Under the pieces are notes generated by a model. The model was not told the DNA's origin and did no database searches. It saw only the letters and a program-made list of their open reading frames with translations. A DNA stretch of 64,000 bases from an uncultured Gammaproteobacteria bacterium (lineage in GTDB: Bacteria > Patescibacteriota > Patescibacteriia > Magasanikbacterales > JBBTQS01): contig OZ246400.1 of assembly GCA_965230935.1 (NCBI GenBank), forward strand, positions 502,359-566,358, read 5' to 3'. The position numbers and the translations under genes are program-made. How positions within the stretch are numbered: position 1 is the first letter of the stretch; each line of letters opens with the position of its first letter. Positions 9,660-48,231 of the stretch are shown piece after piece.

Positions 9660-9742
9660 AAGACATCCCAATTGGGAGACTGTGACATCGGTCGCAGTTG
9701 GTTTCGCTCTTTTTCATGGATGCTTACGAGGAGGGCATCGCC

Positions 9743-21899: not shown

Positions 21900-21980
21900 C
21901 ATGAGAGCTTGCCGGTACCAATACCGGTGTACCAATCATCCCGTTTCAACCGGCCAACACACGGCCAAGGGGGTTTTCCC

Positions 21981-22976
21981 GTGTTTAGTTACCGTAAGGC
22001 GCTGGACGCCTTCATCGTCCTAGCTGTGCTGCTCTTCGCGAGCGTGGCCATGGCCCAGACCCAGGTGCAATTCCGGATCAGCTCGGACTTCTATTGGGCC
22101 GACGACACCACCCGTGGTGAGCAGAAGGCCCCGGAGTTCGACGCCAAAACCGATGCACGGCGGCGTGTGGGCATGATGGTCCACTCGTCCATGGGCGGGA
22201 GCGTGAGCTACCTCACCACCTTCCCCCAGGTGCTGCTGGTCAATGGGCGCAAGATGAACCTGCACGACCGGGCTGGCGATCACGAGCCGATCATGACGCT
22301 CATGCTGAGTGTCGGTTCGTACAAGATCAACGGGTTCGTGATCCAGGCGCTCGACGGAGCCTGGCACTGGGTCAAGCCGTTCACCATCCGTGTCCGGGGC
22401 AACTCGCGCGCCATGGTGCACACCGTGCGTGTGACCAAGCAGATCGCGCAGGTGACCTGGAGCCCACGGCACTGCCTGGCGCACAGGGGCAGCAGCGCGT
22501 GCTACGACCCGAACCTCTACAGCCGCCGCTACAACTTCGACTTCTCGGGGAAGAAGGTCGTGGCGATTCCGGAGGGTCAGTATGACATCGTACGTCGGCC
22601 CAACACCCCGGCGTTCGACGACTACTGCACCTACGACCAGTCGTGTAGCGACAAGGACGTGGCAGCGCACCAGACCATGTTCGCGCTCTCGTGCAGCGGG
22701 GCCGGCAACAACAAGACCTACCGCCGGTACAGTTGCGAGAAGCTGGACAAGCCCGATGCCCTCGGGATGACAGTCACCTTCACCGAGTTGGTCATCGACG
22801 CCGATCTCGCCGAGTCGGTGACGCTGTACCAGACCGGCCATGAGCCACGTACGGTGCATGCTGGCCAGACCCTGAAGGTGAACACCGGCGACACCTACTC
22901 CTTCGTGGCGCCGGCGCCTGCCAAAGCCGAGGGTGAAGGCAAGCAAGCAGAGGCCAAAGGAGACACCGGCGGCTGA
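21981..22976 (+). CDS. Secreted hypothetical protein (about 62% GC)
   Basis: A GTG start preceded by AAGGGGG (7-nt spacer) gives the signal peptide VFSYRKALDAFIVLAVLLFASVAMAQ. The mature part has several Cys pairs and a C-terminal Ala/Glu/Lys-rich tail. ATG 21909 is an alternative, near-leaderless start. Confidence 0.55.
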   Translation: MFSYRKALDAFIVLAVLLFASVAMAQTQVQFRISSDFYWADDTTRGEQKAPEFDAKTDARRRVGMMVHSSMGGSVSYLTTFPQVLLVNGRKMNLHDRAGDHEPIMTLMLSVGSYKINGFVIQALDGAWHWVKPFTIRVRGNSRAMVHTVRVTKQIAQVTWSPRHCLAHRGSSACYDPNLYSRRYNFDFSGKKVVAIPEGQYDIVRRPNTPAFDDYCTYDQSCSDKDVAAHQTMFALSCSGAGNNKTYRRYSCEKLDKPDALGMTVTFTELVIDADLAESVTLYQTGHEPRTVHAGQTLKVNTGDTYSFVAPAPAKAEGEGKQAEAKGDTGG

Positions 22977-25139: not shown

Positions 25140-28100
25140 CTATGTCGAATCCAAGGTCGATCCAGAACTTTCTGGATGCGTGGTGTCAGATGGATTCTTT
25201 TGATTATCTGCGGGTGCATGCTCATGGTGCCCGCCTTTGTTGTCTTCCCGACCATATTGTGCGAGTTCTCGCATCTTGGCAAAGTCAAACTCTGGTTGAT
25301 CTTCCTTTACTTCTGGTTCAGTAGATGGTGGCGGGTTTTGTAACAACTTCTCTGTTGATTGTGGCGACTCCTCTTTTGGCTGAACCTCAGACGTTTCAAC
25401 AAGTGGCTTGTGATGTGGCCCGGCTAATCCAACAGTTGGTTGTAATGCTCCCGGATGAATCGTCGCGTTTTTGGCAATCACCCCGGTTGGCGTCTCAATC
25501 GTAATATGATCGGTTTTTCTACGACGATATCCAGACTTCTCATACGTCACATAGTAGGTATTTGGGCCAACCAAAAATGCATACCGGCCTTTACCCCGGG
25601 TGACTTGAGTTTCAAGTAATTTGTTGTACCGTGCATCAAAAATGCGCACGACTGCCTTACTCAAGGCTACATTAGTTGCTCCATCGAATACCACGCCCCA
25701 TTCACGCACCTTAGCAATCATGTGTACTCGCCTGACAAAAATAAACGTCAGTACGTGGAAAAGTAATGCCAAAGAAACCAAGATTGTTGGACTGATGACA
25801 AACGCGACCACTGCCGCAGCAACACCTGAGTAACTCACTGCCGCCTGGATACCCTTTTTAACCTGATCAACGCGCACCTGAGTAACCTGACGAGAATCCT
25901 CTTGTGGATCAAGGCCGATATTTGGAATCAGATACATTGATTCGGTATCAACGGTAATCACTTCGCCGTTGTAGATCTTCCCAAAGGTAGGGTCTTCGGT
26001 TTTGCTAATCAAGTATGGCGCTGGAAATGCAAACCCGTGTTTTCTGACTTCAACCCGATATGATCCACGTGTGACAAAAAACCCAAACCGTCCATGCACA
26101 TCTGTTACCCGCGTTTGTACCACGCGATTTGTCTGATCATTAATCAGACGAACCAGTGCCAAATCAATTGGCAACTTCGTTAATGCATTAAAGACCACAC
26201 CCCAACTCTTTTGTTTACGCCGCGAGAATAGTCCAATAAACTGAGAAAACAACAGATACAAATATGATGGAATTGAAGGAAGGGTTCCGGCAGCGGTTGC
26301 CACGTTCAATGCAGCAACACCAGCTAATGCCGGGGTAGCGACTTGTTCCGTAACGTGTTCAACTTGAGGATCATCGATTACCCGGTTGATTGCACGCACT
26401 GCTTGTGTGGTAGTGTCAACCACACTTTCAATTACGGTAGGAATGCGAGTTGGCGTGCTCGTGCTCAGCGTGACTGGTATCGTACTTGTTGGCACCATCT
26501 CCACCGTACTGGTTGGACTACTGGTTACTACGGGTGATGAACCATCGGGCTCAACTGGCCCAGGGCCGTCTGGAGTTGGCCCCACTGGTTCAGAACCAGG
26601 TGGCACACCAGGATCGTCAGGGTCTATTGGAGGATCAGGATCGACTGGTGGATCCTCTCCATCAGGAGGGTTACTTGGTATTGGTACCTCAGGAAGCTCC
26701 CCAACTTGGACAGATACCACATTAGGATCACTGGTGTTTGTTGCCTGATCACTTGATGTTACTTCAAGGTGATGCTCACCATCACTTACCTGAGCAAAAC
26801 TTACCTCCCAATCACCGTTGGCGGCTGCATCAACAGTTTGTGTTACGACACCAGCAATACGAAGTGCACCAGCAAGTGGCTCATCTCCGTCAAATGTTTT
26901 TGTGGCGACTATCTTGGCAAGTGGTTCGGTTTTACCTGAGACCACAAGATACTTGATACCATTCTCCGTAACCTCGATTTCAACATCCACGTCTGGAATT
27001 TCAGGCGCTAACCGGTCGAGTACAACCAGTGCGCGTCGGGAATAGATCACGTCATCATCTTGCAGTCCCACAAACTCCACCTGATAAATTCCATCCTCGT
27101 CCGGTAAAGTAAATTCACCTTCATATCCTTGAGTCGGATCTTCAACCAGAATCTTATTTGCTAAATCAACTTTTTTGGCGAGGTCAATCACAAAGTGGGT
27201 GTATGCTTTTGCAAATGCAAACACCGGAACGCTCAACACGTTGGTATACTTATTGCCATTGTTCAACACAAATTCACCCGGGCCTGGTTTTGGTTGTTTA
27301 GGTTTTTTCACCAGAGCAAAATCTCGATTGCTATTCAATAACTCCTCGCCGGTACCATCATCCCGCACCTGAAGCACAATACGATAGGTGCCGATCTCAC
27401 TCACGGACGGAAATTGTACTACCCATACTTTTTCAGTATCAGTAATATCGGAGGGGAATAGCGAAACTGACGACGAACTCTCATCATCCAAATACGGCAC
27501 ATACACGGTAGCTTGCTCACCGGTTTCAGGATCATCGGTCACCAATGTGCGATACAAGGTGAGTTGGGTAGTCTTACCACTATAGATCCCATGACCAGTT
27601 ACGGTCAGTTTGTGGTGGTCTGCTGCCAATGGATCACTCACGTTATGCAATACACTTGCTCCTTCCTGAGGATTATCAATCTCCACTTCTGGTGGAGCAA
27701 TTTTCTCATACGTAATACTTTGCTGATACACCTTGGTCACTCCACCATTAATGGTTTCGAACTTTGCATATACAATCTTTCCCCCTTCGCCATCACTCAG
27801 CGTGTGAGGAATAATTCCGTTTTCAAATGCAGCGATGGTTTCCCATTTTGAATTAACAAACGCGGAATCATTTGACAATGCAATTGATTTAGCTCCAGAC
27901 AAAAACACAGTAATGTCCACATCCTGCTCATGAGTTACTGAAGCACCGTCATTAATCAAAAACGCGGCTCCTGTGGGGTTGTCTCCATCAGGAACAGGAT
28001 CTGCAGGAGGAGATGGATTGCTTCCTCCAGTGCCTCCTTCAGTAGTGGCACTAATCGGCCCGGTATATCCTGAAGCAATATTATCTCCGTTAAATGCGCG

Positions 28101-31100
28101 TACCTGAAATGAATATGTCGTGTTACTTGAAAGGTCATTGAACGTGTGGGTCGTTGCACTCAATCCGGTTACGGTATCACCGGTAGTAATATTTTCTACT
28201 TCATATGTTGTGGTTGGTCCATTGCTATTTGCCCCCCACGTAAGGGTAATTGATTCACTACTATCTACTTGGGCTGCAAAACTATTTGGCCTTGCTGCTA
28301 AGGTATAAATCGCTGTACTCGTAGCATACGAAGAATTTCCCGCAGTGTTCTCTGCACGAACCCGCGCATAATGCACACTGTTTGGATCAAGGCTACTTAA
28401 CGCAACCGTGGTTGCATTGGGAGCATTCAACGCATAATCACTAAAAGAAGACCCATCAGTTGACGTTTGGATACGGAAAAGCCCCTCCACTGATGAATTG
28501 TCAGTCCACGAAAACGTGATCGCACTTGCCGTTACGCTTGAGGTGCCAACACTGGTCGGCGCCTTTGGAATATCTTGCAACGTAAACGTGGACGTTGCAG
28601 ACCACGCACCAACAGACCCATCATCATCAACATACGCCACACGCCAGTAGTACGCCGTGTCAGTCGCTCCTTCTCCACCATCATCATCTAGTGCCAATGA
28701 GAGTGTCGCGGCACTGCCAAGCGCATCATAAGTGATATCACTACAGCGATTACCTTGGGTACAATCACTTACCGTTGATCCACCAGCACCGGAGTCCCAA
28801 TGGGTAATCGAATCCATGGCTATATCAGTACTGACCTGAATTCGTGCCTTGTTTGCGGTATCGCCACTATCCGGATCATTGTAGATTGCCGAAAATGCCG
28901 GAGTGGTGTCAGTCAAACCGGTTGGATTGGTATCTCCCGAACTTGCATCATCATTATTTGAATATAAAGTAGTTGGTGCCGTTGGCGTTCCATTGCCATT
29001 AAAAGTTCCTGCAGCACCATTATTGGTATTTCCAGTTCCACCGGTTACAGCAACATCGCCGGACGAAACACTATTTGCCGTGATATAGGCGACGGCAATA
29101 CACCCGCCACCACCGCCACCACCAGCAGAACTTCCACTTGCCCCACCAGTAGCAGTCATACTTGATGGTGTCCCCGCAACGGTATCAGCAATGATATAGA
29201 TCCCCCCGCCAGCACCACCTCCACCGTTCGTACCGGTACCGGCATTTCCATCGGCCGTAACTGTACCGGCAATGTGCAAGGTATTAGTCACTTCAAATCG
29301 TATATGACCACCACCCGAACCTCCGCTGTTGGCTCCCGTGCTTCCTGAACCACCTGCAGAACCTGTGGTTCCGGGTGTTGAAGTCACACAATACGCTATA
29401 CCAGCAGCACCAGTTCCAGCGCCACCAGCGCCACCATGACCACCACCGCCACCACTACCAGCACCAGAACCACCGCCGCCGCCTGGGCCATTACCACTCC
29501 CACCAACAGCAGTGTGAACTTTGTATCCCTTGCCATCCACATTAATTGATCCACCGCTTGCAACTGTTGATGAAGAAGCTTCTAAATGAATTACATGCGT
29601 CTGCGCCGTATCATTTTGTCCATGGGTCAGTGTTCCGCCACTATTAATTGCTAAGGTATCAAGTGGCAGTGGGTTTGATGATGTGGTGAAGCTACGCATG
29701 TCAAACGTTCCACTACTTCCCAAAATCATATCAACACTACTCGAAGATGTGAGTGTTCCCCCAGCGTCTAAAATCAACTTTCCATTGGAAATAGTGAAGT
29801 TGGTTGTCGATGTTGGTGTAAAGGTCCCTCCAGAATCAACTTGCAATGATCCCGTACCATCACCCCCTGAAAATGGATCACCATTACGCAAGACCAACGT
29901 ATGCGTCGTGCTCACCACATAGATGGCAGAGGTGTCCATGTGCAAAGTGTCTGCAGTGATCGAACTTGCACCTTGCGTTGATCCAGCACCAGAACCACTG
30001 TTGATAGCATACAAATCTCCATCAGTGCCATCCTTTTTAAGGTAGGCATACCCGGCGCCACCGCGCTCATTGGTTCCGGTACCGCCGGTCAAATCAAGAT
30101 GGCTGGTTGCAGAAACCGAGTTGGTTGTTGCGTACTCAAGATACACACACCCGCCTCCACCACCACCGTCACCAGTACCACCAGCGCTGTTTCCGCCCGC
30201 AACAGAAAAGCTTTGCGGAGTTCCGACAATCGCACCAGCACTATCAACTTTTACTCCTCCACCGGCACCACCAGCACCATTGGTATTTATCCCGACCCCA
30301 CCTTCAGCTAAAATTTTTCCATTCAACGTCACGGCACTCGATGCAGTAAGCATAAATAATCCGCCGCCAGATCCACCCCCGTTTGCACCACCAGATCCCG
30401 AACCACCTGCAGATCCGATCGTGGATGGGTTAGTTACGTCACAATATCCGGTTCCACCGGGATCTAAACCACTCGCACCATCACCACCATCACCACCATG
30501 TGCACCACCGGCACCACCAGTTGCACCTGACCCATGACCAAAACCTGGCCCAAAACCATTTCCTCCGACAGTGGTTTTCACGATATATCCTTTTCCATTC
30601 AAATACACCACACCTCCTGAGTCGAGGGTGAAAGTAGCAACACTGAGATCAAGTTCATTCACTTGTGAATCTATATTTCCTCCATGAGTGAGATACCCCC
30701 CACTGTTCACCGCTAGTGTGCCACTGATTGTCTTGGTAGACGTGCCATATTGTGCCAGCTCACCTCCTTGACGAACCGTAATATCATCACCCACCGTAAT
30801 GTCATGAGCAAGACGCAACGTTGACGTCACCACACCGGCACCATCTCCGATGGTCAGTGTGTCAAACGAAATTGCGGCAGTGGTACTTACCGTTGCGGAA
30901 ATATCAATGGTCACATCATCCCCATCTGCCGGCACACGAGACAAATCCCAGTTTGCAGTATCAGACCAACTCGTTCCATCTCCACTTCCGGTCCAGGTAA
31001 TCGCAATACCACCATGGGCTTGTTGGGTAAGTAATCCTGGCCAACCAACTGATGCAACAATTACCCATATAAGCAAAGAGGCTACGATCAACAATCGCCA

Positions 31101-31232
31101 AGGATGTTTTACAAACAAAAAAATCTGCGCGAGAACAGATGCCAAGAAACCCGTCTTTTTTGTGTCCAAAAATAAAACGGTTCCCGTTTTGTGATCAGGA
31201 TCAAATCCTTTGTTCGACGAAGGTATTGCCAT
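25140..31232 (-). CDS. Giant (2030 aa) Gly-rich cell-surface protein: N-terminal signal anchor, two ~270-aa beta-helix-like modules, three FN3-like domains, a Pro-rich linker, and a C-terminal two-TM module with two CarboxypepD_reg-like domains
   Basis: Single uninterrupted ORF. Motifs NGKGY, GGxGGAHGGDGG, YCDVTNP, GGGGAGGG, GGGGGGC. FN3-like ITFSWTDNSS.../ITLTWGANSNGPTTTYEV.... TM segments at aa 35-60, about 1590 and about 1740. Confidence 0.85.
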   Translation of the reverse strand: MAIPSSNKGFDPDHKTGTVLFLDTKKTGFLASVLAQIFLFVKHPWRLLIVASLLIWVIVASVGWPGLLTQQAHGGIAITWTGSGDGTSWSDTANWDLSRVPADGDDVTIDISATVSTTAAISFDTLTIGDGAGVVTSTLRLAHDITVGDDITVRQGGELAQYGTSTKTISGTLAVNSGGYLTHGGNIDSQVNELDLSVATFTLDSGGVVYLNGKGYIVKTTVGGNGFGPGFGHGSGATGGAGGAHGGDGGDGASGLDPGGTGYCDVTNPSTIGSAGGSGSGGANGGGSGGGLFMLTASSAVTLNGKILAEGGVGINTNGAGGAGGGVKVDSAGAIVGTPQSFSVAGGNSAGGTGDGGGGGGCVYLEYATTNSVSATSHLDLTGGTGTNERGGAGYAYLKKDGTDGDLYAINSGSGAGSTQGASSITADTLHMDTSAIYVVSTTHTLVLRNGDPFSGGDGTGSLQVDSGGTFTPTSTTNFTISNGKLILDAGGTLTSSSSVDMILGSSGTFDMRSFTTSSNPLPLDTLAINSGGTLTHGQNDTAQTHVIHLEASSSTVASGGSINVDGKGYKVHTAVGGSGNGPGGGGGSGAGSGGGGGHGGAGGAGTGAAGIAYCVTSTPGTTGSAGGSGSTGANSGGSGGGHIRFEVTNTLHIAGTVTADGNAGTGTNGGGGAGGGIYIIADTVAGTPSSMTATGGASGSSAGGGGGGGCIAVAYITANSVSSGDVAVTGGTGNTNNGAAGTFNGNGTPTAPTTLYSNNDDASSGDTNPTGLTDTTPAFSAIYNDPDSGDTANKARIQVSTDIAMDSITHWDSGAGGSTVSDCTQGNRCSDITYDALGSAATLSLALDDDGGEGATDTAYYWRVAYVDDDGSVGAWSATSTFTLQDIPKAPTSVGTSSVTASAITFSWTDNSSVEGLFRIQTSTDGSSFSDYALNAPNATTVALSSLDPNSVHYARVRAENTAGNSSYATSTAIYTLAARPNSFAAQVDSSESITLTWGANSNGPTTTYEVENITTGDTVTGLSATTHTFNDLSSNTTYSFQVRAFNGDNIASGYTGPISATTEGGTGGSNPSPPADPVPDGDNPTGAAFLINDGASVTHEQDVDITVFLSGAKSIALSNDSAFVNSKWETIAAFENGIIPHTLSDGEGGKIVYAKFETINGGVTKVYQQSITYEKIAPPEVEIDNPQEGASVLHNVSDPLAADHHKLTVTGHGIYSGKTTQLTLYRTLVTDDPETGEQATVYVPYLDDESSSSVSLFPSDITDTEKVWVVQFPSVSEIGTYRIVLQVRDDGTGEELLNSNRDFALVKKPKQPKPGPGEFVLNNGNKYTNVLSVPVFAFAKAYTHFVIDLAKKVDLANKILVEDPTQGYEGEFTLPDEDGIYQVEFVGLQDDDVIYSRRALVVLDRLAPEIPDVDVEIEVTENGIKYLVVSGKTEPLAKIVATKTFDGDEPLAGALRIAGVVTQTVDAAANGDWEVSFAQVSDGEHHLEVTSSDQATNTSDPNVVSVQVGELPEVPIPSNPPDGEDPPVDPDPPIDPDDPGVPPGSEPVGPTPDGPGPVEPDGSSPVVTSSPTSTVEMVPTSTIPVTLSTSTPTRIPTVIESVVDTTTQAVRAINRVIDDPQVEHVTEQVATPALAGVAALNVATAAGTLPSIPSYLYLLFSQFIGLFSRRKQKSWGVVFNALTKLPIDLALVRLINDQTNRVVQTRVTDVHGRFGFFVTRGSYRVEVRKHGFAFPAPYLISKTEDPTFGKIYNGEVITVDTESMYLIPNIGLDPQEDSRQVTQVRVDQVKKGIQAAVSYSGVAAAVVAFVISPTILVSLALLFHVLTFIFVRRVHMIAKVREWGVVFDGATNVALSKAVVRIFDARYNKLLETQVTRGKGRYAFLVGPNTYYVTYEKSGYRRRKTDHITIETPTGVIAKNATIHPGALQPTVGLAGPHHKPLVETSEVQPKEESPQSTEKLLQNPPPSTEPEVKEDQPEFDFAKMRELAQYGREDNKGGHHEHAPADNQKNPSDTTHPESSGSTLDST

Positions 31233-31304
31233 TCCTTATATCGATCGAATTTGAATATAGTATATCACATATTTTGGTTTTATTTTAGGAAAATATCCAA
31301 TGGC

Positions 31305-31332
31305 AGACCCCGACACACTTGTGTCGGGGTCT
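31305..31332. terminator. Perfect 13-bp hairpin (AGACCCCGACACA-CTT-GTGTCGGGGTCT) between the two giant genes
   Basis: Inverted repeat seen directly. It lies 3' of the second giant gene (minus strand) and upstream of the first. No strong T-run. Confidence 0.4.
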
Positions 31333-31409
31333 TGGCAATGCCTTTAGGAGTGACAACAGCGATCAGGTGCGGCAACATACTGTTGTCACCCCTGATACTG
31401 CTCCCAATC

Positions 31410-34400
31410 CTATGACGTATTTTGCGTTTTATCTTTCGGCACATCGGCAGTGTGATCGTAATGACCGCCAGATTTATCTTCTCGCCCATACAATGCCATC
31501 TCTCGCATCTTTGCAAAATCAAACTCTGGTGATTCATTTTTGGATGGTGGTACTTTGGTCTGTTGATCGTCTGAAGTCGCTGTCGGCTTTTGAGGAGGTG
31601 CCGGAGGCGCGGGAGTCTGTTCTGAACCAGAAGAATCCTCTGATGCAGAACGCGAAGTGTTATCCTCCACAACATCAACTAATGGCTTGTGGTGTGGTCC
31701 AGCAAGTCGTACGGTTGGTTGTTGCGTTCCAGGAGTAAGTTTTTCATCACGTGCGATCATGTCACTGACATTAGTAATCACAACTTCATCTGTTTTTTTG
31801 CGTGTATATCCGGATTTTTCATACGTAAGGTAGTACGTGTTTGGCCCAACCAAGAATGCATACCGGCCATTTCCATGCGTGACCTGCGTTTCTAGTAATT
31901 TATTGTACTGTGCATCGAATAACCGAACCACCGCTTTACCTAATGCGCGACGGGTCTGCGCATCAGCCACAACACCCCACTGTGTTGGTTTGATAATGCC
32001 ACGTACTCGGCGCAAAAAGACAAAGGTCAAAATGTGAAACGCCAGTGCTAGTGTCACAATAATGGTTGGCGAAATAACAAATGACACTCCTGCAGCAGCA
32101 ATTCCAGAAAAGCTAACAATACGCTGGAGGTGTTTGAGGACCTGATCACGACTGATTCGCGATACGGCACGAGCATCTTCTTGTGGATCAAGTGCAATAT
32201 TTGGTGTGATGTATTGTGATGCACTGGTTATTTGAATTTTCCCTCCATCGTACAACTGACCAAAATGCACATCTTCAGTCTTTCCAGCAAGATATGGTGC
32301 AGGAAACGCAAAGCCGCGTTTCGTGACCTCAATACGATAGGAACCTTCGGCAGCAAAGAATCCAAATCGACCATAGGTATCAGTCACGCGTGTTTGTATT
32401 ACACGTCCGGTTGCATCGTCAACAAGTCGAATGAGTGCCAAATCAATTGGCAGCCGAGTGAGCGCATTAAATACCACACCCCATTGTTTTTTACGACGAC
32501 CAAACAGACCGAAAAATTGGGAGAGCAGCAAATACAGATACGGTGGAATCGATGGTAACGCTGCAGCTGAAGACACCACGTTTACCGTTGCAACCGTTGC
32601 CAATACCGGTGTTGCGATCTCTTCAGTAACTTGTTCAACTTGAGGGTCATCTACAAACGTTGCCACCGCTTCATAACCAGTAACTAAAGCGTAGATGGTT
32701 CGTTGTGCAAGTGGTGCCTCGTCTGAAGAAGTAGTCATCGTACTGGTACTCGTCTCAGGTTCCACAACAATGACCGGTGTTGGCAATGTAACCGGCTCTG
32801 GTGTCGAGGTGCTCGCCGGTGTACTTGGTGCTGCAGCATCAGGCGCTGGCGCTGCTGGAGCGGATGGTGCAGGCGTTGACGGAGCCGAAGGTTCTGGTGC
32901 AGCCGGAGTTGGGGTACTTGGCGCCGGACCTGTTGGCTGATCTGATGGCGCCGGATCTGTCGATGTTGGATCTGGTTGTGATTCCGGCTCAGTCGAGGGG
33001 TCCTCTGGCGGTTCGGCTGGTGCGTCGGGCACATCATCCCCTGCAATAACTGAAACTTCGGCAATATCACTGGTATTGTCTGCGCGGTCTTGCACAGAAA
33101 CCGCGAGGGTATGCTTACCATTCTGCAACCCAGAGAATGAAAGTTCCCAATCACCGTTCGCGGCCGCTTCGGTTGTCTGGGTAGTCACACCAGCAATACG
33201 CAAAACACCAGCAATTGGTTGTGGAATATCAGGACTTGTTTTGGTTACAATCACTTGCGCAAATGGCTCAGTTTTACCGGAGAGCACCAATTGTGTTTGG
33301 CTATCACTACGACCAGTCTGCACTTTTTGAAGCTGATAGTTAACTTCTGGTGTTTTCGGTGGCGTACGATCAAGCACCACCATGCCACGACGGCGATAAA
33401 TCGATTCTCCTGTTTTATCAAAAGCAACAAATCCTAAAAAGTACACACCATCTTTTTCCGGAAGGATAAATTCCCCTTCCCATGGCTCGCCCACTGCAAC
33501 GGTTGATTGCTTATCTGCTAGGTTGATGTCCCGAGCAAGATCAATCACAAAGTGTGTAAACTCCTGTGCATAAATGTATACCGGCACTTTTAATTCGTTC
33601 GTATATTTTTGGCCATGATTCACCATAAACTCTCCCAGAGAACCTGGCTGTGGACTACGCGTTGCAGCCACCAAAGTAAAGTCACGATGTTGTGTGGCAA
33701 CAATGTCGCCAGAACTGTCATCAATAATGTTGGTGGTCAATCGATATGCTCCAAGCGTATCAACCGCTGGGAATGACGCATTCCACTTTTTATCAGCATC
33801 ACTAATCGCTGATGGAAACAATGACACTTGAGAACGTTCTTCACTGGCAAGATACGGCACATAGGCAATACTCCGTTCCCCTTCTTGATCAATGGATGTG
33901 ACAACTTGATACAATGTAAGCACTGTTGTCTTATCTTCAAATACACCATGACCAGCCACAGAAACCGTCTGAAAATCAGCTTGATCACGTTGGGTGAGAT
34001 TATGCGATACCATTGCACCTTGTTCTGGAATATCAATCACCAATGCTGGCGCTTGTGTTGTCTGATACGTAATGACTTGTCGATATACTTGAGAAACTGC
34101 ACCGTTTACCGTTTCAAATTTCGCATAAATAATTTTGCTGCCCGCCCCGTCCGGCAATACAAATGGAACCGTATTATCACGAATGCTATCGAGTCGAACC
34201 CACTTAGCACCGGTAAACGTTGGTTCTGAAGAAAGAGTTACAGAAGTTGCTTTTGGCAAATACACTGTGACATCAACATCACGAATAAATGTAGTGCGTG
34301 CACCATCATTAATTAAGAATGTTGCGCCGGTTGGATTTTCTCCGCTTGGTTCTGGTTCACTTGGTGGAGCTGGGGTCGAGCCGCCAGTACCACTTGACGT

Positions 34401-37400
34401 AACATTTACAATAGCGGTTGAAAAAAGACCCACAGCACCATTATTATTCCCGCCAACTCCACCGGTTTTCGTCACGTCATCTTCAATCAAACTAATCGAG
34501 GATGTGTAGTTAAACAATGCACACCCACCGGCGCCACCACCACCTTCAGTTGCACCACTCGCGCCGCCAGTAATGGTAAAGCTTTGTGGACTACCTGCAA
34601 TTACATTGGCGGTAAATTGCACCCCACCACCGGCGCCACCACCACCAGAACTGTCTGTTCCGTTACCACCATCAGCAGTGACAGTCCCGTTAATTGTTAA
34701 AGTCCCAGTAATATCGAGCTCAATAAATCCACCACCAGCGCCACCTGCTTGAGATGGTGCACCACTACCACCTGATGAGCCAATAGTACCAGGATCACTT
34801 GCAATACAATATGCGGAGCCACCAGAAACACCACCGGCGCCACCAGCGCCACCATGACCAGCACCTCCACCGCCAGTCGATGCGGTATTAGTTCCACCAC
34901 CAGGACCATTTCCACTTGACCCATAGCCTTTCCCGTCTACATCAATAGCGCCTCCTACAGCAACTGTCGAAGAAGTAGCGGAGATATAAATCACATTTGT
35001 TTGTGTTGTATCGTTGGTTCCGTGCGTAAGTGTCCCCCCATCATTAATTAATAGTGTGTTAAGTGTTAAAGAATCTGATGACGTGGTAAAACTCCGCATA
35101 TCAAAAATACCATCATCACTAACCACCACATTGATATTATTTGATGAGGTAAACGTCGCACCAGCGTCTAGAATAACTGTTGTACTCGTAATCGTAAAAT
35201 CAACCGTTGATGTCGGTGTAAAGATGGCCCCTGAAGCAAGCTGTAACGAACCAGTTGCATCACCGTCAGCAAGTGGATCACTATTTTGCATCACAAACGT
35301 CCGACCAGAAGGCACAAGATATGTTGCTGAAGTTTGGGTAACAAGTGTATCAACGGTCAATGTCTCTGCGCCTTGAGTTGAGGTCTCACCGCTTCCCCCA
35401 TTAATCGAATACAAATCCCCATCAGTCCCACTTTGCTTAGTATAGATATATCCAGCACCCCCTCGTTCTGCACCACCAGTTCCTCCAGACATAGTAATAG
35501 ATGATGTTACAACAATTGAATTTGATGTAGTAAAGGACAAAAGTGCGCATCCACCCCCACCTCCGCCAGTTCCAGAAGATCCGCCATTACCACCAGTGGT
35601 AGTAAATGATTGTGGTGTCCCTTTAAAGTCCGCGGCAGTAAGTTTAACCCCACCACCAGCCCCACCACCCCCACGGGTAGCATCACCAACACCACCATCA
35701 GCGGTAATAGTTCCGTTAATTGTAAAATCCCCGGTGGCAGCAAACACAATCAATCCACCACCATACCCACCAACTTCTCCACTTGGGCCAAACCCACCAG
35801 AAGATCCAATCGTCCCTGGATCAGTCACGTCACAATATCCAGTCCCACCACTTGCTCCGCCTGTATCTCCCCCATCACCAGCATGGGCGCCTCCCGAACC
35901 AGCAACTGAAGCACTCGAGCCACCGCCACCAGGACCGTTGCTCGTAGCTGCACTCGAGTGTGGCTCATACCCCTTACCGTCAACATTAATTGAGCCACCG
36001 GCCTCGATTGTTGAAGAGGCAACAGAGATATTAATAACATGCGTCTGTGTAGTTGTGTTTTGACCATGAGTAAGGTTGGCACCGTTGTGGATCATCAATG
36101 TATTAAATGGTTGTGCTGCAGATGATGTGGTAAAACTGCGCATATCAAGTGCGCCATCGTATTCCACGAACACATCTAAAGAAGAGGAAGAAGTAATAGT
36201 TGATCCTGAAGTGATAATTAATGTAGAGCTTGCGATTTCAAAATCGGTTGTTGATGTCGGAGTAAATATTGCCCCGGAGGCGATTTGTAACGAGCCGGTA
36301 GCATCACTTTCATCAAATGGGCTGACATCTCTAAGCACCAACGTATTCCCTGATGGGACCAGATACACTGTTGATGTGTTTATGGTTAATGAATTAGCAG
36401 TGATGCTCGTTGCCCCTTGGGTGCTCGATGCGCCACTCGCTCCACTGTTGACTGAATACAGATCACCATCGGTGCCATCTTGCTTCACATACGCATATCC
36501 ACCACCACCTCGCTTATTTCCACCAGTACCTCCACCCATACTAACGGTTGAAGTCGCTGAGATGCTATTTGATGTGGTGTAAGAAAGCAAAACACACCCA
36601 CCTCCCCCACCACCACTACTTGTCGCGCCCCCATCACCACCAGAAACAGAAGCCCCTTGTGGTGTCCCAGCAACAATCGCAGCATCAATTTTAATTCCCC
36701 CACCAGCGCCTCCACCCCCGGTAGTGGCTTGGCCAGGATGGCCATCAGCAGTAATGGTACCGTTAATTGTTGCCGTCCCTGAAGCATTGAGGATAAACAA
36801 TCCACCACCGGCGCCTCCAAGTTGTCCACTTGGACCAAACCCACCAGAAGATCCCACTGTTGCTGGATTGGTGACATCACAATATCCAGTCCCGCCAGTC
36901 GCACCCGTTGAATCTCCTCCATCTCCTGCATGTGCACCCCCCGCACCAGCACTTGAGGCACTTGAACCACCACCACCAGAACCATTCCCACTTGGCTCAA
37001 ATCCTTTTCCATTCAAAAACACAAAGCCACCTGATTGCAAATCAAAGGTAGCCACATTCCAGTCCAGTTCATGATCTTGAGTGGTGGTATTTGCTTGGTG
37101 GGTGAGATACCCGCCACTACGAATTTCTAATGTACCAGTGATGGTTTCGGTGAGATCATCAACCTGTGTTAACTCTCCTCCTTGGAAAATAGTAATGTTG
37201 GTCCCTGCAGTGATGGCGTGACCGAGCTTTAGTGTTGATGTTACAGAACCAACTCCATCTCCAAGTGATATATTTGCAAAAGAAATTGCTGCAGTGGTAC
37301 TTACTGTCGCAGCAATATCTATCACAACAGAATCACCTGATGTTGGTAAACGATTAAGATCCCAATTGGCGGTATCATTCCAATCAGTTCCATCACCACC

Positions 37401-37652
37401 ACCATCCCACGTAATGGTCTCACTTACTCCTACTGCAGTAGGCTGCAAATCGCCAATCGGGAACCAATTCACCCCCACGATCACCCACATGAATACAGTA
37501 AACACGACCAACCAACGATATGGGTGATGGATAGTTTTAAAAAAATGACCAAGCAACTTGGTAAATTCTGCAAATTTTTTACCACAAAAAGCCAAAAAGG
37601 TTTTCGGCTTTGGTTCCGAAGCTTGATTGCGGTCCGATAAAGGCATTGCCAT
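31410..37652 (-). CDS. Giant (2080 aa) Gly-rich cell-surface protein, paralog of 25140-31232 with three beta-helix-like modules
   Basis: Same architecture and motifs as the neighbour. The C-terminal ~430 aa are about 65% identical to it (e.g. LPSIPPYLYLLLSQFFGLFGRRKKQWGVVFNALTRLPIDLALIRL..., YAFLVGPNTYYLTYEKSGY, EFDFAKMREMALYGRED). Confidence 0.85.
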   Translation of the reverse strand: MAMPLSDRNQASEPKPKTFLAFCGKKFAEFTKLLGHFFKTIHHPYRWLVVFTVFMWVIVGVNWFPIGDLQPTAVGVSETITWDGGGDGTDWNDTANWDLNRLPTSGDSVVIDIAATVSTTAAISFANISLGDGVGSVTSTLKLGHAITAGTNITIFQGGELTQVDDLTETITGTLEIRSGGYLTHQANTTTQDHELDWNVATFDLQSGGFVFLNGKGFEPSGNGSGGGGSSASSAGAGGAHAGDGGDSTGATGGTGYCDVTNPATVGSSGGFGPSGQLGGAGGGLFILNASGTATINGTITADGHPGQATTGGGGAGGGIKIDAAIVAGTPQGASVSGGDGGATSSGGGGGGCVLLSYTTSNSISATSTVSMGGGTGGNKRGGGGYAYVKQDGTDGDLYSVNSGASGASSTQGATSITANSLTINTSTVYLVPSGNTLVLRDVSPFDESDATGSLQIASGAIFTPTSTTDFEIASSTLIITSGSTITSSSSLDVFVEYDGALDMRSFTTSSAAQPFNTLMIHNGANLTHGQNTTTQTHVINISVASSTIEAGGSINVDGKGYEPHSSAATSNGPGGGGSSASVAGSGGAHAGDGGDTGGASGGTGYCDVTDPGTIGSSGGFGPSGEVGGYGGGLIVFAATGDFTINGTITADGGVGDATRGGGGAGGGVKLTAADFKGTPQSFTTTGGNGGSSGTGGGGGGCALLSFTTSNSIVVTSSITMSGGTGGAERGGAGYIYTKQSGTDGDLYSINGGSGETSTQGAETLTVDTLVTQTSATYLVPSGRTFVMQNSDPLADGDATGSLQLASGAIFTPTSTVDFTITSTTVILDAGATFTSSNNINVVVSDDGIFDMRSFTTSSDSLTLNTLLINDGGTLTHGTNDTTQTNVIYISATSSTVAVGGAIDVDGKGYGSSGNGPGGGTNTASTGGGGAGHGGAGGAGGVSGGSAYCIASDPGTIGSSGGSGAPSQAGGAGGGFIELDITGTLTINGTVTADGGNGTDSSGGGGAGGGVQFTANVIAGSPQSFTITGGASGATEGGGGAGGCALFNYTSSISLIEDDVTKTGGVGGNNNGAVGLFSTAIVNVTSSGTGGSTPAPPSEPEPSGENPTGATFLINDGARTTFIRDVDVTVYLPKATSVTLSSEPTFTGAKWVRLDSIRDNTVPFVLPDGAGSKIIYAKFETVNGAVSQVYRQVITYQTTQAPALVIDIPEQGAMVSHNLTQRDQADFQTVSVAGHGVFEDKTTVLTLYQVVTSIDQEGERSIAYVPYLASEERSQVSLFPSAISDADKKWNASFPAVDTLGAYRLTTNIIDDSSGDIVATQHRDFTLVAATRSPQPGSLGEFMVNHGQKYTNELKVPVYIYAQEFTHFVIDLARDINLADKQSTVAVGEPWEGEFILPEKDGVYFLGFVAFDKTGESIYRRRGMVVLDRTPPKTPEVNYQLQKVQTGRSDSQTQLVLSGKTEPFAQVIVTKTSPDIPQPIAGVLRIAGVTTQTTEAAANGDWELSFSGLQNGKHTLAVSVQDRADNTSDIAEVSVIAGDDVPDAPAEPPEDPSTEPESQPDPTSTDPAPSDQPTGPAPSTPTPAAPEPSAPSTPAPSAPAAPAPDAAAPSTPASTSTPEPVTLPTPVIVVEPETSTSTMTTSSDEAPLAQRTIYALVTGYEAVATFVDDPQVEQVTEEIATPVLATVATVNVVSSAAALPSIPPYLYLLLSQFFGLFGRRKKQWGVVFNALTRLPIDLALIRLVDDATGRVIQTRVTDTYGRFGFFAAEGSYRIEVTKRGFAFPAPYLAGKTEDVHFGQLYDGGKIQITSASQYITPNIALDPQEDARAVSRISRDQVLKHLQRIVSFSGIAAAGVSFVISPTIIVTLALAFHILTFVFLRRVRGIIKPTQWGVVADAQTRRALGKAVVRLFDAQYNKLLETQVTHGNGRYAFLVGPNTYYLTYEKSGYTRKKTDEVVITNVSDMIARDEKLTPGTQQPTVRLAGPHHKPLVDVVEDNTSRSASEDSSGSEQTPAPPAPPQKPTATSDDQQTKVPPSKNESPEFDFAKMREMALYGREDKSGGHYDHTADVPKDKTQNTS

Positions 37653-43975: not shown

Positions 43976-46900
43976 TTACTCGTACACTTCATTGCCGATA
44001 AGCATACCGCAGGCGCCAGCAAGACCAGAAAGGGAAACGGTATTCCAGCAGACTGGCGTAGCATCACTATTCGATAATCCTTTTGCCGCCAACGTGCCTT
44101 TCCACTTCTCGGTAAGATGAATCTCATCACATTGGCTTGGTGCATGTGAGTAGATGATGCCATCTTCATTTGTAATTGAAGGATTGCCAGTTGCATCACG
44201 AGTACAAATAGAACCCCACGTCTCAGTAAACACTAGTGGAGTCGTTACAAAATTGTCATCATCATTGCTTAGATATACTTTTGCAGTGGTTTTTCCTGAC
44301 TTCTTCGCATAGGCACACTTCCCAAATTCATCACTCAAATTTTCCTTGTAACATACCGGCTTCCCACCACCCGGCACATCCCCGACACTCTTCTTAAGTA
44401 ATTTACAACTTCCAGCGTATGTTAATTTATAGGTGTTATCCTCGGTAAACTCGTATCCTTTAAGTTCTTTACATGGCGAATCCCATGTTTCTTTAGAGCA
44501 CCACCCTAATCCAGTGGAGACTGAAATACCTTGACATGTCAATAAGCCTGCACTCACCCCAACTTTACACGTATTGATCTCTGATCCACATGGTGTTCCT
44601 TCTGCATACGTGTCACCAAATGCACTTGATTCATTTGGTGGCGGCACACATCGATATGATTTACCGGCAAGGGTAGTTCCGACATCAAGACAAGACAATC
44701 CGGCATTACAAATCGAGGAATCAGGACCAAAGTCGGTCACTTCACAATCTTCAAGGTCCGCTGGAGTATTGGCTGCCTGCACCTCAAGCACTCGAAGCTC
44801 AGCAGTCAATTGAGAACCTTGAATGCCAACAATTTCCGCAACGGCGTTGACTGCGCCAAGTACCGCCTGAAGCTTGATAAGTTTTTGCGACAATGTAGAA
44901 CCGACATACGCAAGGTCAATATAATCTTGATATGCGGCATGTTGTTCCAAAAGACTCTTATTTGAATCAATCCAATCTTGCACTTCTTTGCGTTTGGCAA
45001 CTACTTGTTGTTCATAGAACGGCTTGAGCTTGTGACAATTTTTTGTTTGGTACCCACCGCATGATGCGCCAATACTTCCATCACTACATTCAAACCGACG
45101 ACCGCCCTTAGCCTCGGTAAATGAACAAGAAAGACCGGGATCACATGTTGACTTCACATTGGTGACCACATTCACCCCTTCCTCAAGAGAAAAGTTGAGC
45201 GGATGACAATAATCAAGCTTTTCTCCGGCATCACATACGCCATGAATCTTATTTACAAAGCAGCCTTGTGTATCCATCAAAGCGACGCAAAGATCAGAGG
45301 CGCATTGATCATTACTTTGACACCGTTGCCCATTGGCCAAACTCCCACTTGTTGGCTGCTTCCAGCAAAACCCTATTGGTCCTTGCCCAGGAATCATACT
45401 CCGCCACTCTTCTGTTGCCATACGCACACTGAGTGCCGGATTTAATACCACCTTACCATTAGTGAAAACCGGGATTCCCAATTCTACAAAAAAGCTCGCT
45501 CCACCAAGTACCGCTTCTGCCAATACTTCTACGGCTACTTGAACTCCCGGGAGCGCCAATGACAAAAATGCACTACATGCTCCTTGTGTTTTCGGATCAA
45601 CATCCGGACGCTGTAAACACTCACCACCAAGCTTTCTACAAGCGTCACCAAGTGGCCCAACCGGGCGACAAATTTCTCCACCACCGGTCATGAGACGACA
45701 GTTATTTTTAATCTCATCTACTTTCTCCTTTGGCAATCCTCCTGGAATGCGAATCTGCGTACAAAAATTATCACTCTTACAACACACACGATCCTCTCCT
45801 ATGAAATTGGAAAGATCAACATTTTGATTTAATACCGCAGGTATGGGCGGTGTCTCAAATCTGGTAAGCGCCGGATTTACGGTTTGCAACAATCCATACC
45901 CACCAGCACCAACTCCCATGGCAACCACACTCCCAAGAATAATCCCTTTAGCACCAGTGATCGCTGCGGCATTCCCAGCGGCCCCTGCCCACTGCATTCC
46001 AGCGGCCGCAATGCTGATCACTGATACAATCGCCAAAAATCCCAAACTGTATTGAAAGACCGCGCCGACATACCCACTGATATTGGTAGTGGTGGTGCCG
46101 GCGATCGGAATATTCAGTGTTGCTTCCCCATTAACAAAGCAGTATGGCCCTTCTTTTGCGTTCTTATTATTGGAAGGTGGCGCCCATTGATATCCCCGAT
46201 CTTCACACTGCTTCTTGGTCCAGTGCTTGTCACTTTCCGGAGTATTATCAATCGTCAAAGAATCTTTTTGCTGCTCTGAACCTGTTGTAAATTGCTGATT
46301 TGCCTGCTCCTCATTTAATGTTACCGAACCACAAGCACTAATCTCATTGCAAAGCGTACCTTGAACAATCTCAACACGATTAGGCATACCCGCCTCATTC
46401 TTAAAACCATGTTGTTCAAGAAAAGCAGTTCCACACCCTGCAGCAGCATTACTACATTGCAATACCGGCTCACCATCCTCTAAGTTGTGGTCACCATCAG
46501 CATCAGTAAACACCACACAACAGGACGCTGCTTTCTGACAAGCGAGCTGTGTAGAACACTCTGCAGTGAGTAATTGCAATTTAACCTTATTCTCAGGATC
46601 TATTTTGTCACACACTCGCCCAAAGGGGAGATCTTTAGGAGGAGTACAAGAGATGAGCTCACCATTATTCACGACGTCATTCCCATTCGTGTCAGTGTAC
46701 TTGGCACAACAAAGAATCTCATCAGTAACTCCTACGGCAAGTTGTTGCTTCTCTTGCTCAGCGTATGCAAGATGGAAACCAACAGCAAAACCACCACTAT
46801 AATCTTGTTGACACACCGCCTCCTTTTCAAGACCAGGATATTGCGTAACGGTATATCCTGGGATCTGAGGACAGGTATAATCATGGTCGATTAAATCTAA

Positions 46901-47398
46901 ATTTGTTTTTGAAAACTGCTTACAACCAACACCGCTATGGCCATCTGAGTCTACGGTGTTCGATTTGTAATGACAATAAAACTTGTCATCCCATGGATCC
47001 TTAATCTGTGTTTTAAATGCACTTACATGTTCAGGAGCTCCGTTAGGTGCAAAACAGGACCAAAAATCTGCCCCACTATTAGTCTCCGCACTGCATGCTC
47101 CTGGTTGCAGTAGTGGAAACAAACTCTGCCCATCAACTTGCGCACCACTACAAAACTTACCGGTACTATCATCAGCATCCATATCAGTCCCGTTTGGAGT
47201 AACCACGTCTAGACACCCAATGGTTTTACCGTCCTCATCACCATCAGGAGATGCATCCAAGTACACACAACACCCCGCTTGACCAGCTGCATATACACTC
47301 GCTGGTATGGCCGTCATCACCAAGACCACTGCAGCAATGATTATCCATGCTCCAGTCAAAATGCGATATATGCTTCGTACCCTACCACGCTGTACCAT
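43976..47398 (-). CDS. Giant (1140 aa) Cys-rich secreted/membrane protein with a central two-helix hydrophobic hairpin resembling TrbC/VirB2 pilin
   Basis: Signal anchor ILTGAWIIIAAVVLVMTAI. More than 60 Cys, many in CC/CxxC pairs. Central VGAVFQYSLGFLAIVSVISIAAAGMQWAGAAGNAAAITGAKGIILGSVVAMGVGAGGYGLL. The start codon overlaps the dsbA-like stop by 1 nt. Confidence 0.8.
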   Translation of the reverse strand: MVQRGRVRSIYRILTGAWIIIAAVVLVMTAIPASVYAAGQAGCCVYLDASPDGDEDGKTIGCLDVVTPNGTDMDADDSTGKFCSGAQVDGQSLFPLLQPGACSAETNSGADFWSCFAPNGAPEHVSAFKTQIKDPWDDKFYCHYKSNTVDSDGHSGVGCKQFSKTNLDLIDHDYTCPQIPGYTVTQYPGLEKEAVCQQDYSGGFAVGFHLAYAEQEKQQLAVGVTDEILCCAKYTDTNGNDVVNNGELISCTPPKDLPFGRVCDKIDPENKVKLQLLTAECSTQLACQKAASCCVVFTDADGDHNLEDGEPVLQCSNAAAGCGTAFLEQHGFKNEAGMPNRVEIVQGTLCNEISACGSVTLNEEQANQQFTTGSEQQKDSLTIDNTPESDKHWTKKQCEDRGYQWAPPSNNKNAKEGPYCFVNGEATLNIPIAGTTTTNISGYVGAVFQYSLGFLAIVSVISIAAAGMQWAGAAGNAAAITGAKGIILGSVVAMGVGAGGYGLLQTVNPALTRFETPPIPAVLNQNVDLSNFIGEDRVCCKSDNFCTQIRIPGGLPKEKVDEIKNNCRLMTGGGEICRPVGPLGDACRKLGGECLQRPDVDPKTQGACSAFLSLALPGVQVAVEVLAEAVLGGASFFVELGIPVFTNGKVVLNPALSVRMATEEWRSMIPGQGPIGFCWKQPTSGSLANGQRCQSNDQCASDLCVALMDTQGCFVNKIHGVCDAGEKLDYCHPLNFSLEEGVNVVTNVKSTCDPGLSCSFTEAKGGRRFECSDGSIGASCGGYQTKNCHKLKPFYEQQVVAKRKEVQDWIDSNKSLLEQHAAYQDYIDLAYVGSTLSQKLIKLQAVLGAVNAVAEIVGIQGSQLTAELRVLEVQAANTPADLEDCEVTDFGPDSSICNAGLSCLDVGTTLAGKSYRCVPPPNESSAFGDTYAEGTPCGSEINTCKVGVSAGLLTCQGISVSTGLGWCSKETWDSPCKELKGYEFTEDNTYKLTYAGSCKLLKKSVGDVPGGGKPVCYKENLSDEFGKCAYAKKSGKTTAKVYLSNDDDNFVTTPLVFTETWGSICTRDATGNPSITNEDGIIYSHAPSQCDEIHLTEKWKGTLAAKGLSNSDATPVCWNTVSLSGLAGACGMLIGNEVYE

Positions 47399-48129: not shown

Positions 48130-48231
48130 AGTATGTCTCGTTATCAATAGGCAAAGTATACCATAAGTATGGCTACTGATCATCGCAAGATTGACGAAAA
48201 ACCAACTCTGTGCTATACTCATCTCAAACCT

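Follow-up and report, generated by a model that had tools for sequence, protein, structure and literature searches.

A Tandem Pair of Genes for Giant Gly-Rich Proteins

This study concerns a 64,000-nucleotide stretch of DNA, hereafter the window, from an uncultured bacterium of the Patescibacteria, or candidate phyla radiation (CPR) (positions 502,359 to 566,358 of contig OZ246400.1, GenBank assembly GCA_965230935.1), and in particular two adjacent minus-strand genes, A and B, which encode giant candidate surface proteins. A mechanical listing of open reading frames (ORFs) gives proteins of 2030 amino acids (aa) for A and 2080 aa for B, at exactly the coordinates that a first-pass annotation of the bare sequence had assigned to the pair, with 177 bp between the two genes (Table 1). 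Together they take up 12.5 kb, or about 1.3% of their contig, which is 931 kb long and probably makes up most of the genome. By BLASTP the two proteins align in an N-terminal part, with 51% identity over 725 columns, and in a C-terminal part, with 49% identity over 1013 columns. Sharing about 50% identity at both ends, they are paralogues, as had been claimed.

Gly-rich repetitive DNA assembled from short-read metagenomes, as the record names indicate this to be, raises the concern that such ORFs are artefacts of mis-assembly or of a collapsed repeat, or decaying pseudogenes. Both genes, however, are open without interruption over 6.1–6.2 kb. B shows zero base differences from the contigs of two other samples (metagenome assemblies), and A, for which comparison was possible in one of the two, differs by one single-nucleotide polymorphism (SNP); the 177-bp spacer also has the same sequence in that second assembly. 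An accident of assembly can therefore be dismissed. Collapse of the repeats is unlikely since the module copies within the genes are just 63–79% identical in DNA, and many genomes hold homologues of like length and order. The concern, which the first-pass annotation had itself raised, thus has a probability close to negligible.

The Gly-Rich Module and Its Family

Comparison of the full proteins with themselves by BLASTP gave the diagonal alone; the repeats were therefore cut out and then aligned, and a hidden Markov model (HMM) was built from the cores of the five repeat units. Each unit consists of a Gly-rich core of about 235 aa (27–30% Gly) followed by a Thr/Ser-rich, Gly-poorer spacer of about 115 aa, so that the period is 342–349 aa (1026 and 1047 nt in the DNA) rather than the modules of about 270 aa proposed earlier. 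The core is found twice in A and three times in B, with HMM scores of 290–337 bits. The sequence motifs first noticed, namely LTH, GKG[YF], YC[DIV], GGGGAGGG and GGGG+C, are all present and periodic; A has two each of LTH, GKG[YF] and YC[DIV] and B has three, with LTH at aa 181 and 535 of A and at aa 183, 527 and 875 of B. The first core of A pairs with the first of B and the second of A with the third of B (Table 1), while the second core of B is nearest to the first (57% identity). The rungs open with a glycine run (GGYGGGL..., GGGGAGGGV..., GGGGGGC...) and the strands come next. The core profile is marked by LTH..N, GKGY, GG.H.G.GG, Y[CGD], GSGGG, GGGAGGG and GGGGGG[CR], and all five copies in the window match it.

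Neither the core nor the spacer is matched by any Pfam or NCBIfam model, even when the pieces are scanned alone, and the same two libraries hold no model for the module in three distant module-bearing proteins. This bears out the earlier remark that the repeat family could not be named. The best 120 homologues of B all carry the core, in 1–9 copies. When the module profile was searched against 1.84 billion representative proteins, it matched 13,051 proteins at E ≤1e-3 and 4,428 at E ≤1e-30, with up to 12 stretches per protein and proteins of up to 7,134 aa. Among the carriers that have a name, those of the CPR have 2–3 copies and those of the Verrucomicrobiota 6–9. The Gly-rich module is a large family across phyla for which Pfam and NCBIfam have no model.

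The giants of the Verrucomicrobiota and other phyla (for example P0035, P0031, P0024 and P0010) have the same module of about 235 aa in 6–9 copies and match the profile with E-values down to 0. They differ from A and B in their shorter spacers (period about 260 aa), in mostly lacking the pair of cysteines described below, and in their C-termini, which carry DUF7619 and CARDB (P0035), Lcl_C (P0024) or DUF11 (P0010). Precomputed labels on related giants include caspase (PF00656), for example on P0029, and CarboxypepD_reg on others.

Each core of the CPR type contains exactly two cysteines, one at Y-C and one at GGGGG-C. Across 615 modules both are present in 59, neither in 520, the second alone in 34 and the first alone in 2. 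Such covariation of the two positions suggests a disulfide, which fits an extracytoplasmic location, and the pair probably forms one; we count a DsbA-like gene in the window in support of it.

A Predicted Beta-Helix Rod

AlphaFold2 was run on aa 467–815 of B, which cover the end of one spacer, core 2 and the next spacer, with a 26-sequence alignment of modules. The model has a mean predicted local distance difference test score (pLDDT) of 92.2 and a predicted template modelling score of 0.92, and DSSP assigns short strands throughout, the flanks included. It is assigned to the right-handed parallel beta-helices, whose fold is a solenoid of stacked three-strand rungs; the handedness is a probable one. 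A Gly-rich stretch of 77 residues is modelled with confidence and has no assigned secondary structure. The best structural neighbours of the model are bacterial and fungal adhesins; bactofilin scores 9.3, and lyases, the TMEM2 hyaluronidase and phage depolymerases score 7.3–8.4. The comparison with predicted structures covered viral proteins (BFVD). Here Foldseek gave six matches at E ≤1e-3 (E 4.6e-6 to 2.6e-4), all Gly-rich “collagen-like” or PA14 proteins of prasinoviruses, Pandoravirus and Orpheovirus. These are the only significant Foldseek matches; they belong to viruses of eukaryotes and have nominal annotation, and the likeness (18–25% identity, TM-scores of a modest 0.28–0.41) is one between predicted structures alone.

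The beta-helix is preceded in both proteins by a short N-cap. In A it scores 15.7–17.2 bits with the Pfam G8 model (PF10162), short of the threshold of 22.9 bits, and in B the Pfam scan gives a weak Amnionless match (E 0.0024), below the cut-off. A relative, P0024, reaches 58 bits with G8, and the N-cap motif can therefore be called G8-like.

This weak G8/Amnionless-like motif, together with the near-invariant polar residues of the module alignment (His63, Asn66, Tyr96, His124, Tyr140 and Ser151), could be taken to mean that the modules are polysaccharide or cell-wall lyases or hydrolases, carried on a stalk, with which the bacterium would break through or feed on the envelope of a host or a glycan from its surroundings, adhesion being just a by-product. 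We consider this unlikely. As had been said of the pair at the outset, nothing catalytic is recognizable: Pfam, NCBIfam and PDB sequence searches of A and B returned no catalytic family, the scans of the module alone included, and the PDB search gave spurious matches to antibody Gly-Ser linkers and nothing else. The adhesins outrank the enzymes among the structural matches. The invariant positions of the module are mostly glycines, as expected of a structural repeat, and over the 615 modules the columns conserved above 80% are Tyr, Pro, Ser and Ala alone. Furthermore, 2–12 near-equivalent copies per protein suit a rod better than an active site.

Export Signal, Stalk and Linker

Both proteins begin with a basic leader of about 45 aa and a hydrophobic helix at aa ~47–65, followed by AHG in A and AVG in B, a few residues ahead of the first conserved strand, “ITW”. 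Twenty homologues have VKA|AA, VRA|AA, VNA|AA, AYA|AL and similar sequences at the same site. Given this signal-peptidase pattern, a cleaved signal peptide, judged by eye, is no less likely than a signal anchor. The helix described earlier is thus there, but the AxA-like motifs point at least equally to cleavage where an anchor had been assumed.

The stalk is where the two proteins part. In A, Pfam finds Ig_Rha78A_N (32.5–50.7 bits, E 2.4e-13) and two stretches of fn3 (PF00041; 56.8–64 bits, E 1.5e-17, above the threshold of 25 bits). In B, fn3 has no match, whether Pfam is run on the full length or on separate pieces, and module 3 leads straight into the middle region that is common to A. The three fibronectin type III (FN3)-like domains that had been assigned to both proteins therefore hold for A only, as one Ig_Rha78A_N and two fn3 domains. 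The common middle region of about 455 aa has an Ig-like end (Big_13, 27.4 bits; Big_6, 26.4 bits). The Pro/Thr/Asp-rich linker that had been noticed is borne out by its composition, with 24–25% Pro and 25–28% Thr plus Ser.

The C-Terminal Anchor Cassette

When aa 1618–1945 of A are scanned alone, CarboxypepD_reg (PF13620) is matched in two stretches with 56.0 bits (E 5.1e-15; gathering threshold 32.3 bits), a match that the scan of full-length A had missed. The same family is found in 19 of 20 cassette relatives, and A and B align with 18 relatives across the entire cassette, so the conserved C-terminal membrane module of the first-pass annotation stands, now as helix pairs combined with CarboxypepD_reg. 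The AlphaFold2 model of the cassette (pLDDT 78.7) runs helix, helix, beta-sandwich, helical hairpin, beta-sandwich; the sandwiches are mostly at or above 90 and the first two helices at about 40–52. The tails of A and B share the motif PEFDFAKMRE[LM]A.YGRED, with variants in P0004, P0003 and P0016. Anchoring by sortase was rejected, as there is no LPxTG near the C-terminus, and about 370 residues follow the first hydrophobic pair.

Across 85 cassettes there are four hydrophobic segments, Ha, Hb, Hc and Hd, of 18–19 residues each and essentially without acidic residues. Ha, Hb and Hc have no Lys or Arg, and Hd has them just at its C-terminal end. The basic residues are clustered: Lys/Arg number 5.2 over the 8 residues that follow Hb, 5.1 over the 23 that precede Hc, and about 4 around the point where Hd ends. 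The positive-inside rule is established knowledge on the topology of membrane proteins, and two arrangements appear about equally likely. In one, which follows that rule, the sandwiches and the tail would be cytoplasmic and Hb, Hc and Hd would span the membrane; Ha, which is Ala/Gly-rich with a conserved Asn, would then be interfacial. In the other, all four segments span, and the two sandwiches rest against the membrane on its outer side.

Under the first arrangement the sandwiches and the tail motif are cytoplasmic, and the rod would be linked to an intracellular partner. We can therefore imagine the cassette as a transmembrane, integrin-like connector and the module as an undescribed beta-solenoid family with an ordered, non-beta insert of 77 residues, possibly similar to polyglycine II (PGII), the kind of Gly-run helix that is bundled in snow-flea AFP, phage S16 gp38 and ALK GlyR. 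This combined reading is speculative and we think it improbable. If true, it would mean outside-in signalling or force transmission during episymbiotic attachment, and it would extend to the surface proteins with this cassette in Patescibacteria, of which there are hundreds.

How widely the cassette is used was seen from a pattern scan of one genome per species, which was more informative than a word-indexed search (21 proteins, mostly fragments). The scan gave 598 stretches, among which at least 230 cassette loci were confirmed by tblastn; the best 78 of these, with 83 cassette ORFs, were analysed. Their labels are mostly Magasanikbacteria, Falkowbacteria, Uhrbacteria, Parcubacteria or “Patescibacteria group”. 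Many third-party annotation (TPA) assemblies in the scan are labelled “uncultured Gammaproteobacteria”, which we take to be a placeholder. Within the best 78 loci the Gly-rich module is found on just 4 of the 83 ORFs. The others are 400–3,700 aa long and have ectodomains of the fn3/PhoD-N-like, FG-GAP + NHL + DUF11 or Big_13 kinds. With so many kinds of ectodomain on it, the cassette serves this part of the CPR as a display anchor of general use. The module and it are independent building blocks. Module and cassette are both without a model or a description in the libraries and literature that were searched.

Several cassette proteins are of interest in their own right. Four of the best 78 loci (L020, L041, L063 and L077) have two or three cassette genes in tandem without the Gly-rich module, those of L063 encoding 1310, 2295 and 2742 aa; in other Patescibacteria, too, cassette proteins have repeatedly been duplicated in tandem. 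P0123 (528 aa) has the pilin-like N-terminal methylation motif (Pfam N_methyl, E 3.2e-7) together with a C-terminal cassette, and would be an odd pilin-like protein tethered at both ends. An ORF of 3702 aa at L019 and P0010 (3548 aa) combine six Gly-rich modules with the CPR cassette, the only two among the multi-module giants listed to do so. The source of L019 is a metagenome-assembled genome labelled “Candidatus Binatia”, and this is either bin contamination or a spread of the module–cassette combination outside the Patescibacteria.

History of the Locus

On one side of the pair lie the genes for ValRS, TyrRS, ArgRS, bactofilin and a DHH phosphoesterase, and on the other those for a Vut_1 transporter, RluD, CMP kinase (CMPK), ribosomal protein L19 and UvrA. 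No secretion, sortase or pilus genes adjoin A and B. The B–A spacer has no promoter- or terminator-like site in a scan that gave fewer promoter-like sites than shuffled sequences did, and co-transcription of the two genes is possible. Two representatives of related species, L002 and L003, have the order UvrA-L19-CMPK-RluD-(Vut_1)-[one beta-helix protein of about 2,000 aa]-DHH(-ValRS), with a single gene at the site of the pair. The single gene of L002 is collinear with A over its full length (41.6% identity, 2106 columns), while B matches it in pieces alone. A therefore has the ancestral architecture, and B is a lineage-specific tandem duplicate which, relative to A, lacks the Ig/FN3 segment and has a third module. 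The named relatives of the pair belong to Candidatus Magasanikbacteria, Peregrinibacteria and Pacebacteria; the cassette alone is found additionally in Falkowbacteria and Uhrbacteria. All of these are Patescibacteria, and it is from the named relatives that the bacterium is assigned to this group, most likely as a relation of Magasanikbacteria.

The single gene in relatives also bears on another explanation, in which the pair is a part of the envelope, an S-layer-like or spacer coat whose rods pack laterally by their flat glycine faces, possibly as A–B hetero-oligomers, and bind no other organism. The glycine stripes could permit such close packing, both proteins appear from their models to be anchored in the membrane, and the share of the contig given to the pair is large enough to suit an envelope component. 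We find this quite unlikely all the same. Pfam and NCBIfam give no SLH domain or other S-layer family, and an S-layer was rejected on this ground; relatives do with one gene at the locus; the varied ectodomains of the cassette (FG-GAP/NHL, fn3 and Big_13) suit a display platform better than a lattice; and a long disordered Pro/Thr linker is typical of projecting fibres. Among the extracellular structures first suggested (fibre, adhesin or S-layer-like structure), it is thus the fibre or adhesin that is favoured by the predicted beta-helix, the adhesin neighbours, the export signal and the anchor.

Adhesive Fibres as the Favoured Reading

We favour the reading, with a probability of about 0.6, that A and B are adhesive surface fibres of a Patescibacteria bacterium, exported by the Sec system and anchored in the membrane at the C-terminus. 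Both would be exported by the N-terminal signal, which is probably cleaved. The distal N-terminal part would form a continuous right-handed beta-helix rod, made of the G8-like cap and the units of about 350 aa, two in A and three in B; at about 4.8 Å per rung and 30–35 aa per rung, the rod would measure roughly 12–18 nm, which is a rough estimate. A beta-sandwich stalk would come next (Ig_Rha78A_N and two fn3 domains in A, the Big_13-ended middle of about 455 aa in both) and then a Pro/Thr-rich linker of about 100–125 aa, the two of which could lengthen the fibre by a few tens of nm. Two hydrophobic helix pairs, each with a Lys/Arg cluster and a CarboxypepD_reg (transthyretin-like) sandwich, would fix the fibre in the cytoplasmic membrane, and the acidic tail with its conserved motif would form the C-terminal end. 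The tip or a face of the rod would adhere to the envelope of a host cell or to the surface of a polymer, with B as a lineage-specific second fibre that has the longer rod and no FN3 segment.

The reading of A and B as adhesive fibres fits the episymbiotic life of the cultivated Patescibacteria (10.1101/2024.11.25.624915). It also agrees with a report that very large proteins of Patescibacteria are preferentially surface-targeted and have adhesion domains (PMC13059738). Those proteins, of Absconditicoccaceae and other Patescibacteria, are proposed to bind hosts and resemble A and B in being longer than 1,500 aa and in having a signal or transmembrane (TM) segment and fn3-type domains; their function is inferred, as it is here. 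In the passages of that report that were consulted, neither the Gly-rich beta-helix module nor the CarboxypepD_reg cassette is mentioned.

Several points weigh against the reading. Export, the disulfide, membrane topology and function are what we infer for A and B, and adhesion and host attachment would follow from the fold and the architecture. Cleavage of the signal peptide was called by eye, and the positive-inside rule would put the sandwiches in the cytoplasm, in conflict with four full spans. The likeness to adhesins is that of a generic beta-helix, with 129–203 of 349 residues aligned at no more than 18% identity, and Foldseek against the PDB gave no significant match (best E 0.11). The fold class is clear, but no close relative has a solved structure. 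Finally, the neighbouring genes are housekeeping genes, which offer A and B no functional context.

Comparison with Known Beta-Helical Adhesins

It is useful to set A and B against the systems that they resemble. The tapirins of Caldicellulosiruptor (PDB 6n2c, 6n2b and 4wa0) share 10% identity with them and have no sequence-family link. Tapirins have a single beta-helix domain that is not Gly-rich, and they lack tandem modules, an Ig/FN3 stalk and a C-terminal TM/CarboxypepD_reg cassette. The genes of tapirins adjoin a type IV pilus locus, a setting different from the housekeeping surroundings of A and B.

The module model also resembles the exoproteins of the two-partner secretion (TPS) systems of type V, namely HMW1, EtpA, HxuA, FHA and hemolysin A. 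This likeness would allow A and B to be contact-dependent toxin delivery proteins of the CdiA/FHA type, in which the rod would bear a toxic domain at its tip. Yet they have no TPS domain (Pfam Haemagg_act) and no NPN[LG] motif (NPNL or NPNGI); no TpsB/Omp85 partner is among their neighbours (DHH, Vut_1, RluD, CMP kinase, L19, UvrA and the tRNA synthetases); no toxin or immunity module is found; and the C-terminus is a membrane anchor and not a polymorphic toxin. We regard toxin delivery as very improbable. Autotransporter passengers (pertactin, IcsA, Ag43 and VacA) differ from A and B by the 12-strand beta-barrel translocator at their C-terminus, and A and B have no match to Pfam Autotransporter. 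A and B would, by their models, be anchored C-terminally in the cytoplasmic membrane, and their relatives are in Patescibacteria, which are not known to have an outer membrane. Membership in the TPS or autotransporter families was rejected for want of a TPS domain, NPNL motif, barrel, partner gene and sequence relationship; a match to a known autotransporter or adhesin HMM, which would have made this a described system, did not appear. An RTX (repeats-in-toxin) beta-roll was also rejected, since there are 1–2 isolated GGxGxD motifs, not in tandem, and no Pfam HemolysinCabind match. By analogy, A and B may work like the beta-helical fibre adhesins (tapirin, HMW1/EtpA/FHA and autotransporter passengers) while lacking the features that define those families.

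Table 1. Positions in the window of genes A and B and of the parts of the proteins they encode.
Feature	Position	Strand	Description
Gene B	31410..37652	-	signal, cap, 3 Gly-rich beta-helix modules, Ig-like middle, P/T linker, anchor cassette, tail
B N-terminus	37416..37652	-	~45-aa basic leader, hydrophobic helix aa 48-66, AVG before first strand (hydropathy)
B beta-helix N-cap, ITWDGGGDGTDWNDTANWDLNRLP..D.V.I	37164..37415	-	like start of G8/Amnionless domains
B module 1, aa 164-391	36480..37163	-	core HMM 315 bits; 60% identical to A module 1
B spacer 1, aa 392-506	36135..36479	-	Gly-poorer, Thr/Ser-rich beta-strand segment, predicted to continue the helix
B module 2, aa 507-740	35433..36134	-	modelled with its flanks
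B spacer 2, aa 741-854	35091..35432	-	
B module 3, aa 855-1080	34413..35090	-	terminal type; 55% identical to A module 2
B middle region, aa 1081-1540	33033..34412	-	homologous to A middle
B Pro/Ala/Thr-rich linker, aa 1541-1666	32655..33032	-	P 25%, T+S 28%
B anchor cassette	31743..32654	-	66% identical to cassette of A
B C-terminal tail with PEFDFAKMREMALYGRED	31413..31742	-	aligned with A
Spacer between B and A, 177 bp	31233..31409	-	
Gene A	25140..31232	-	signal, cap, 2 modules, Ig_Rha78A_N + 2 fn3, middle, P/T linker, anchor cassette, tail
A N-terminus	31002..31232	-	leader, hydrophobic helix aa 47-65, AHG before first strand (hydropathy)
A beta-helix N-cap, G8-like	30750..31001	-	sub-threshold G8 score
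A module 1, aa 162-400	30033..30749	-	core HMM 302 bits; no Pfam match scanned alone
A spacer, aa 401-514	29691..30032	-	
A module 2, aa 515-747	28992..29690	-	core HMM 290 bits
Ig_Rha78A_N + two fn3, A only, aa ~748-1060	28053..28991	-	Pfam
A middle region, aa 1061-1515	26688..28052	-	~49% identical to B; Big_13/Big_6 Ig-like end
A Pro/Thr/Asp-rich linker, aa 1516-1617	26382..26687	-	P 25%, T+S 25%
A anchor cassette	25458..26381	-	Ha-Hb, RRKQK, CarboxypepD_reg 1, hairpin Hc-Hd, RR, CarboxypepD_reg 2
A acidic/Pro-rich C-terminal tail, conserved motif PEFDFAKMRELAQYGRED	25143..25457	-	aligned with B

Other Features of the Window

Two islands of high GC content stand out elsewhere in the window. 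The first, at 9600-13000 (56–62% against a background of about 45%), holds an ORF for a 614-aa Ser/Thr protein kinase with a PknB-type domain (11147..12991, minus strand; E 1.5e-64) and one of 439 aa (9698..11017, plus strand) with a Cys-rich CGDDGCGGNCGVCG stretch, a TM segment and no family match; the island looks foreign and may have been acquired horizontally. The second, at 21827-23860 (60.7%), lies between the ValRS and DHH genes and has overlapping long ORFs on both strands, among them a secreted-looking ORF of 355 aa (21909..22976, plus strand) without a family match. No Rfam family matches this island. ORFs are also called at the matching position of another assembly, L080, and the ValRS–DHH gap is GC-elevated (50–53%) in the relatives L002 and L005 as well.

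A very Cys-rich membrane protein of 1140 aa (43976..47398, minus strand) has no Pfam or NCBIfam match. The DsbA-like thioredoxin gene (47398..48222, minus strand) abuts its gene and lies upstream on the same strand, and the Cys-rich protein could be one more surface protein, served by an oxidase of its own. As ordinary content of a genome, the window also has a bacterial class A RNase P RNA at 55109-55507 (151 bits) and four tRNAs, of which tRNA-Ile(UAU) at 38432-38506 is just past the Vut_1 gene upstream of B.

Significance

Much of bacterial diversity belongs to the Patescibacteria, and to our knowledge the molecules by which they contact their hosts are largely unknown apart from the type IV pili of Saccharibacteria. 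The pair described here offers two handles. One is the module, which would form rods, is absent from Pfam and NCBIfam, and yet occurs in over 13,000 representative proteins from different phyla. The other is the cassette, which is apparently a common display route in organisms of the Magasanikbacteria, Uhrbacteria and Falkowbacteria types, for very different ectodomains. Profiles of the module and the cassette would better annotate many giant proteins now called “hypothetical” and would permit a systematic listing of candidate host-contact proteins. The recent duplication of the gene and the exchange of domains, with a third module in place of the FN3 segment, is the kind of variation that proteins exposed to a host or to the environment are expected to show. 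While the pair itself is of moderate interest, the greater interest is in what it leads to: a module family that is large and unannotated, and an anchor found across the CPR, with a possible coupling between the outside and the inside of the cell.

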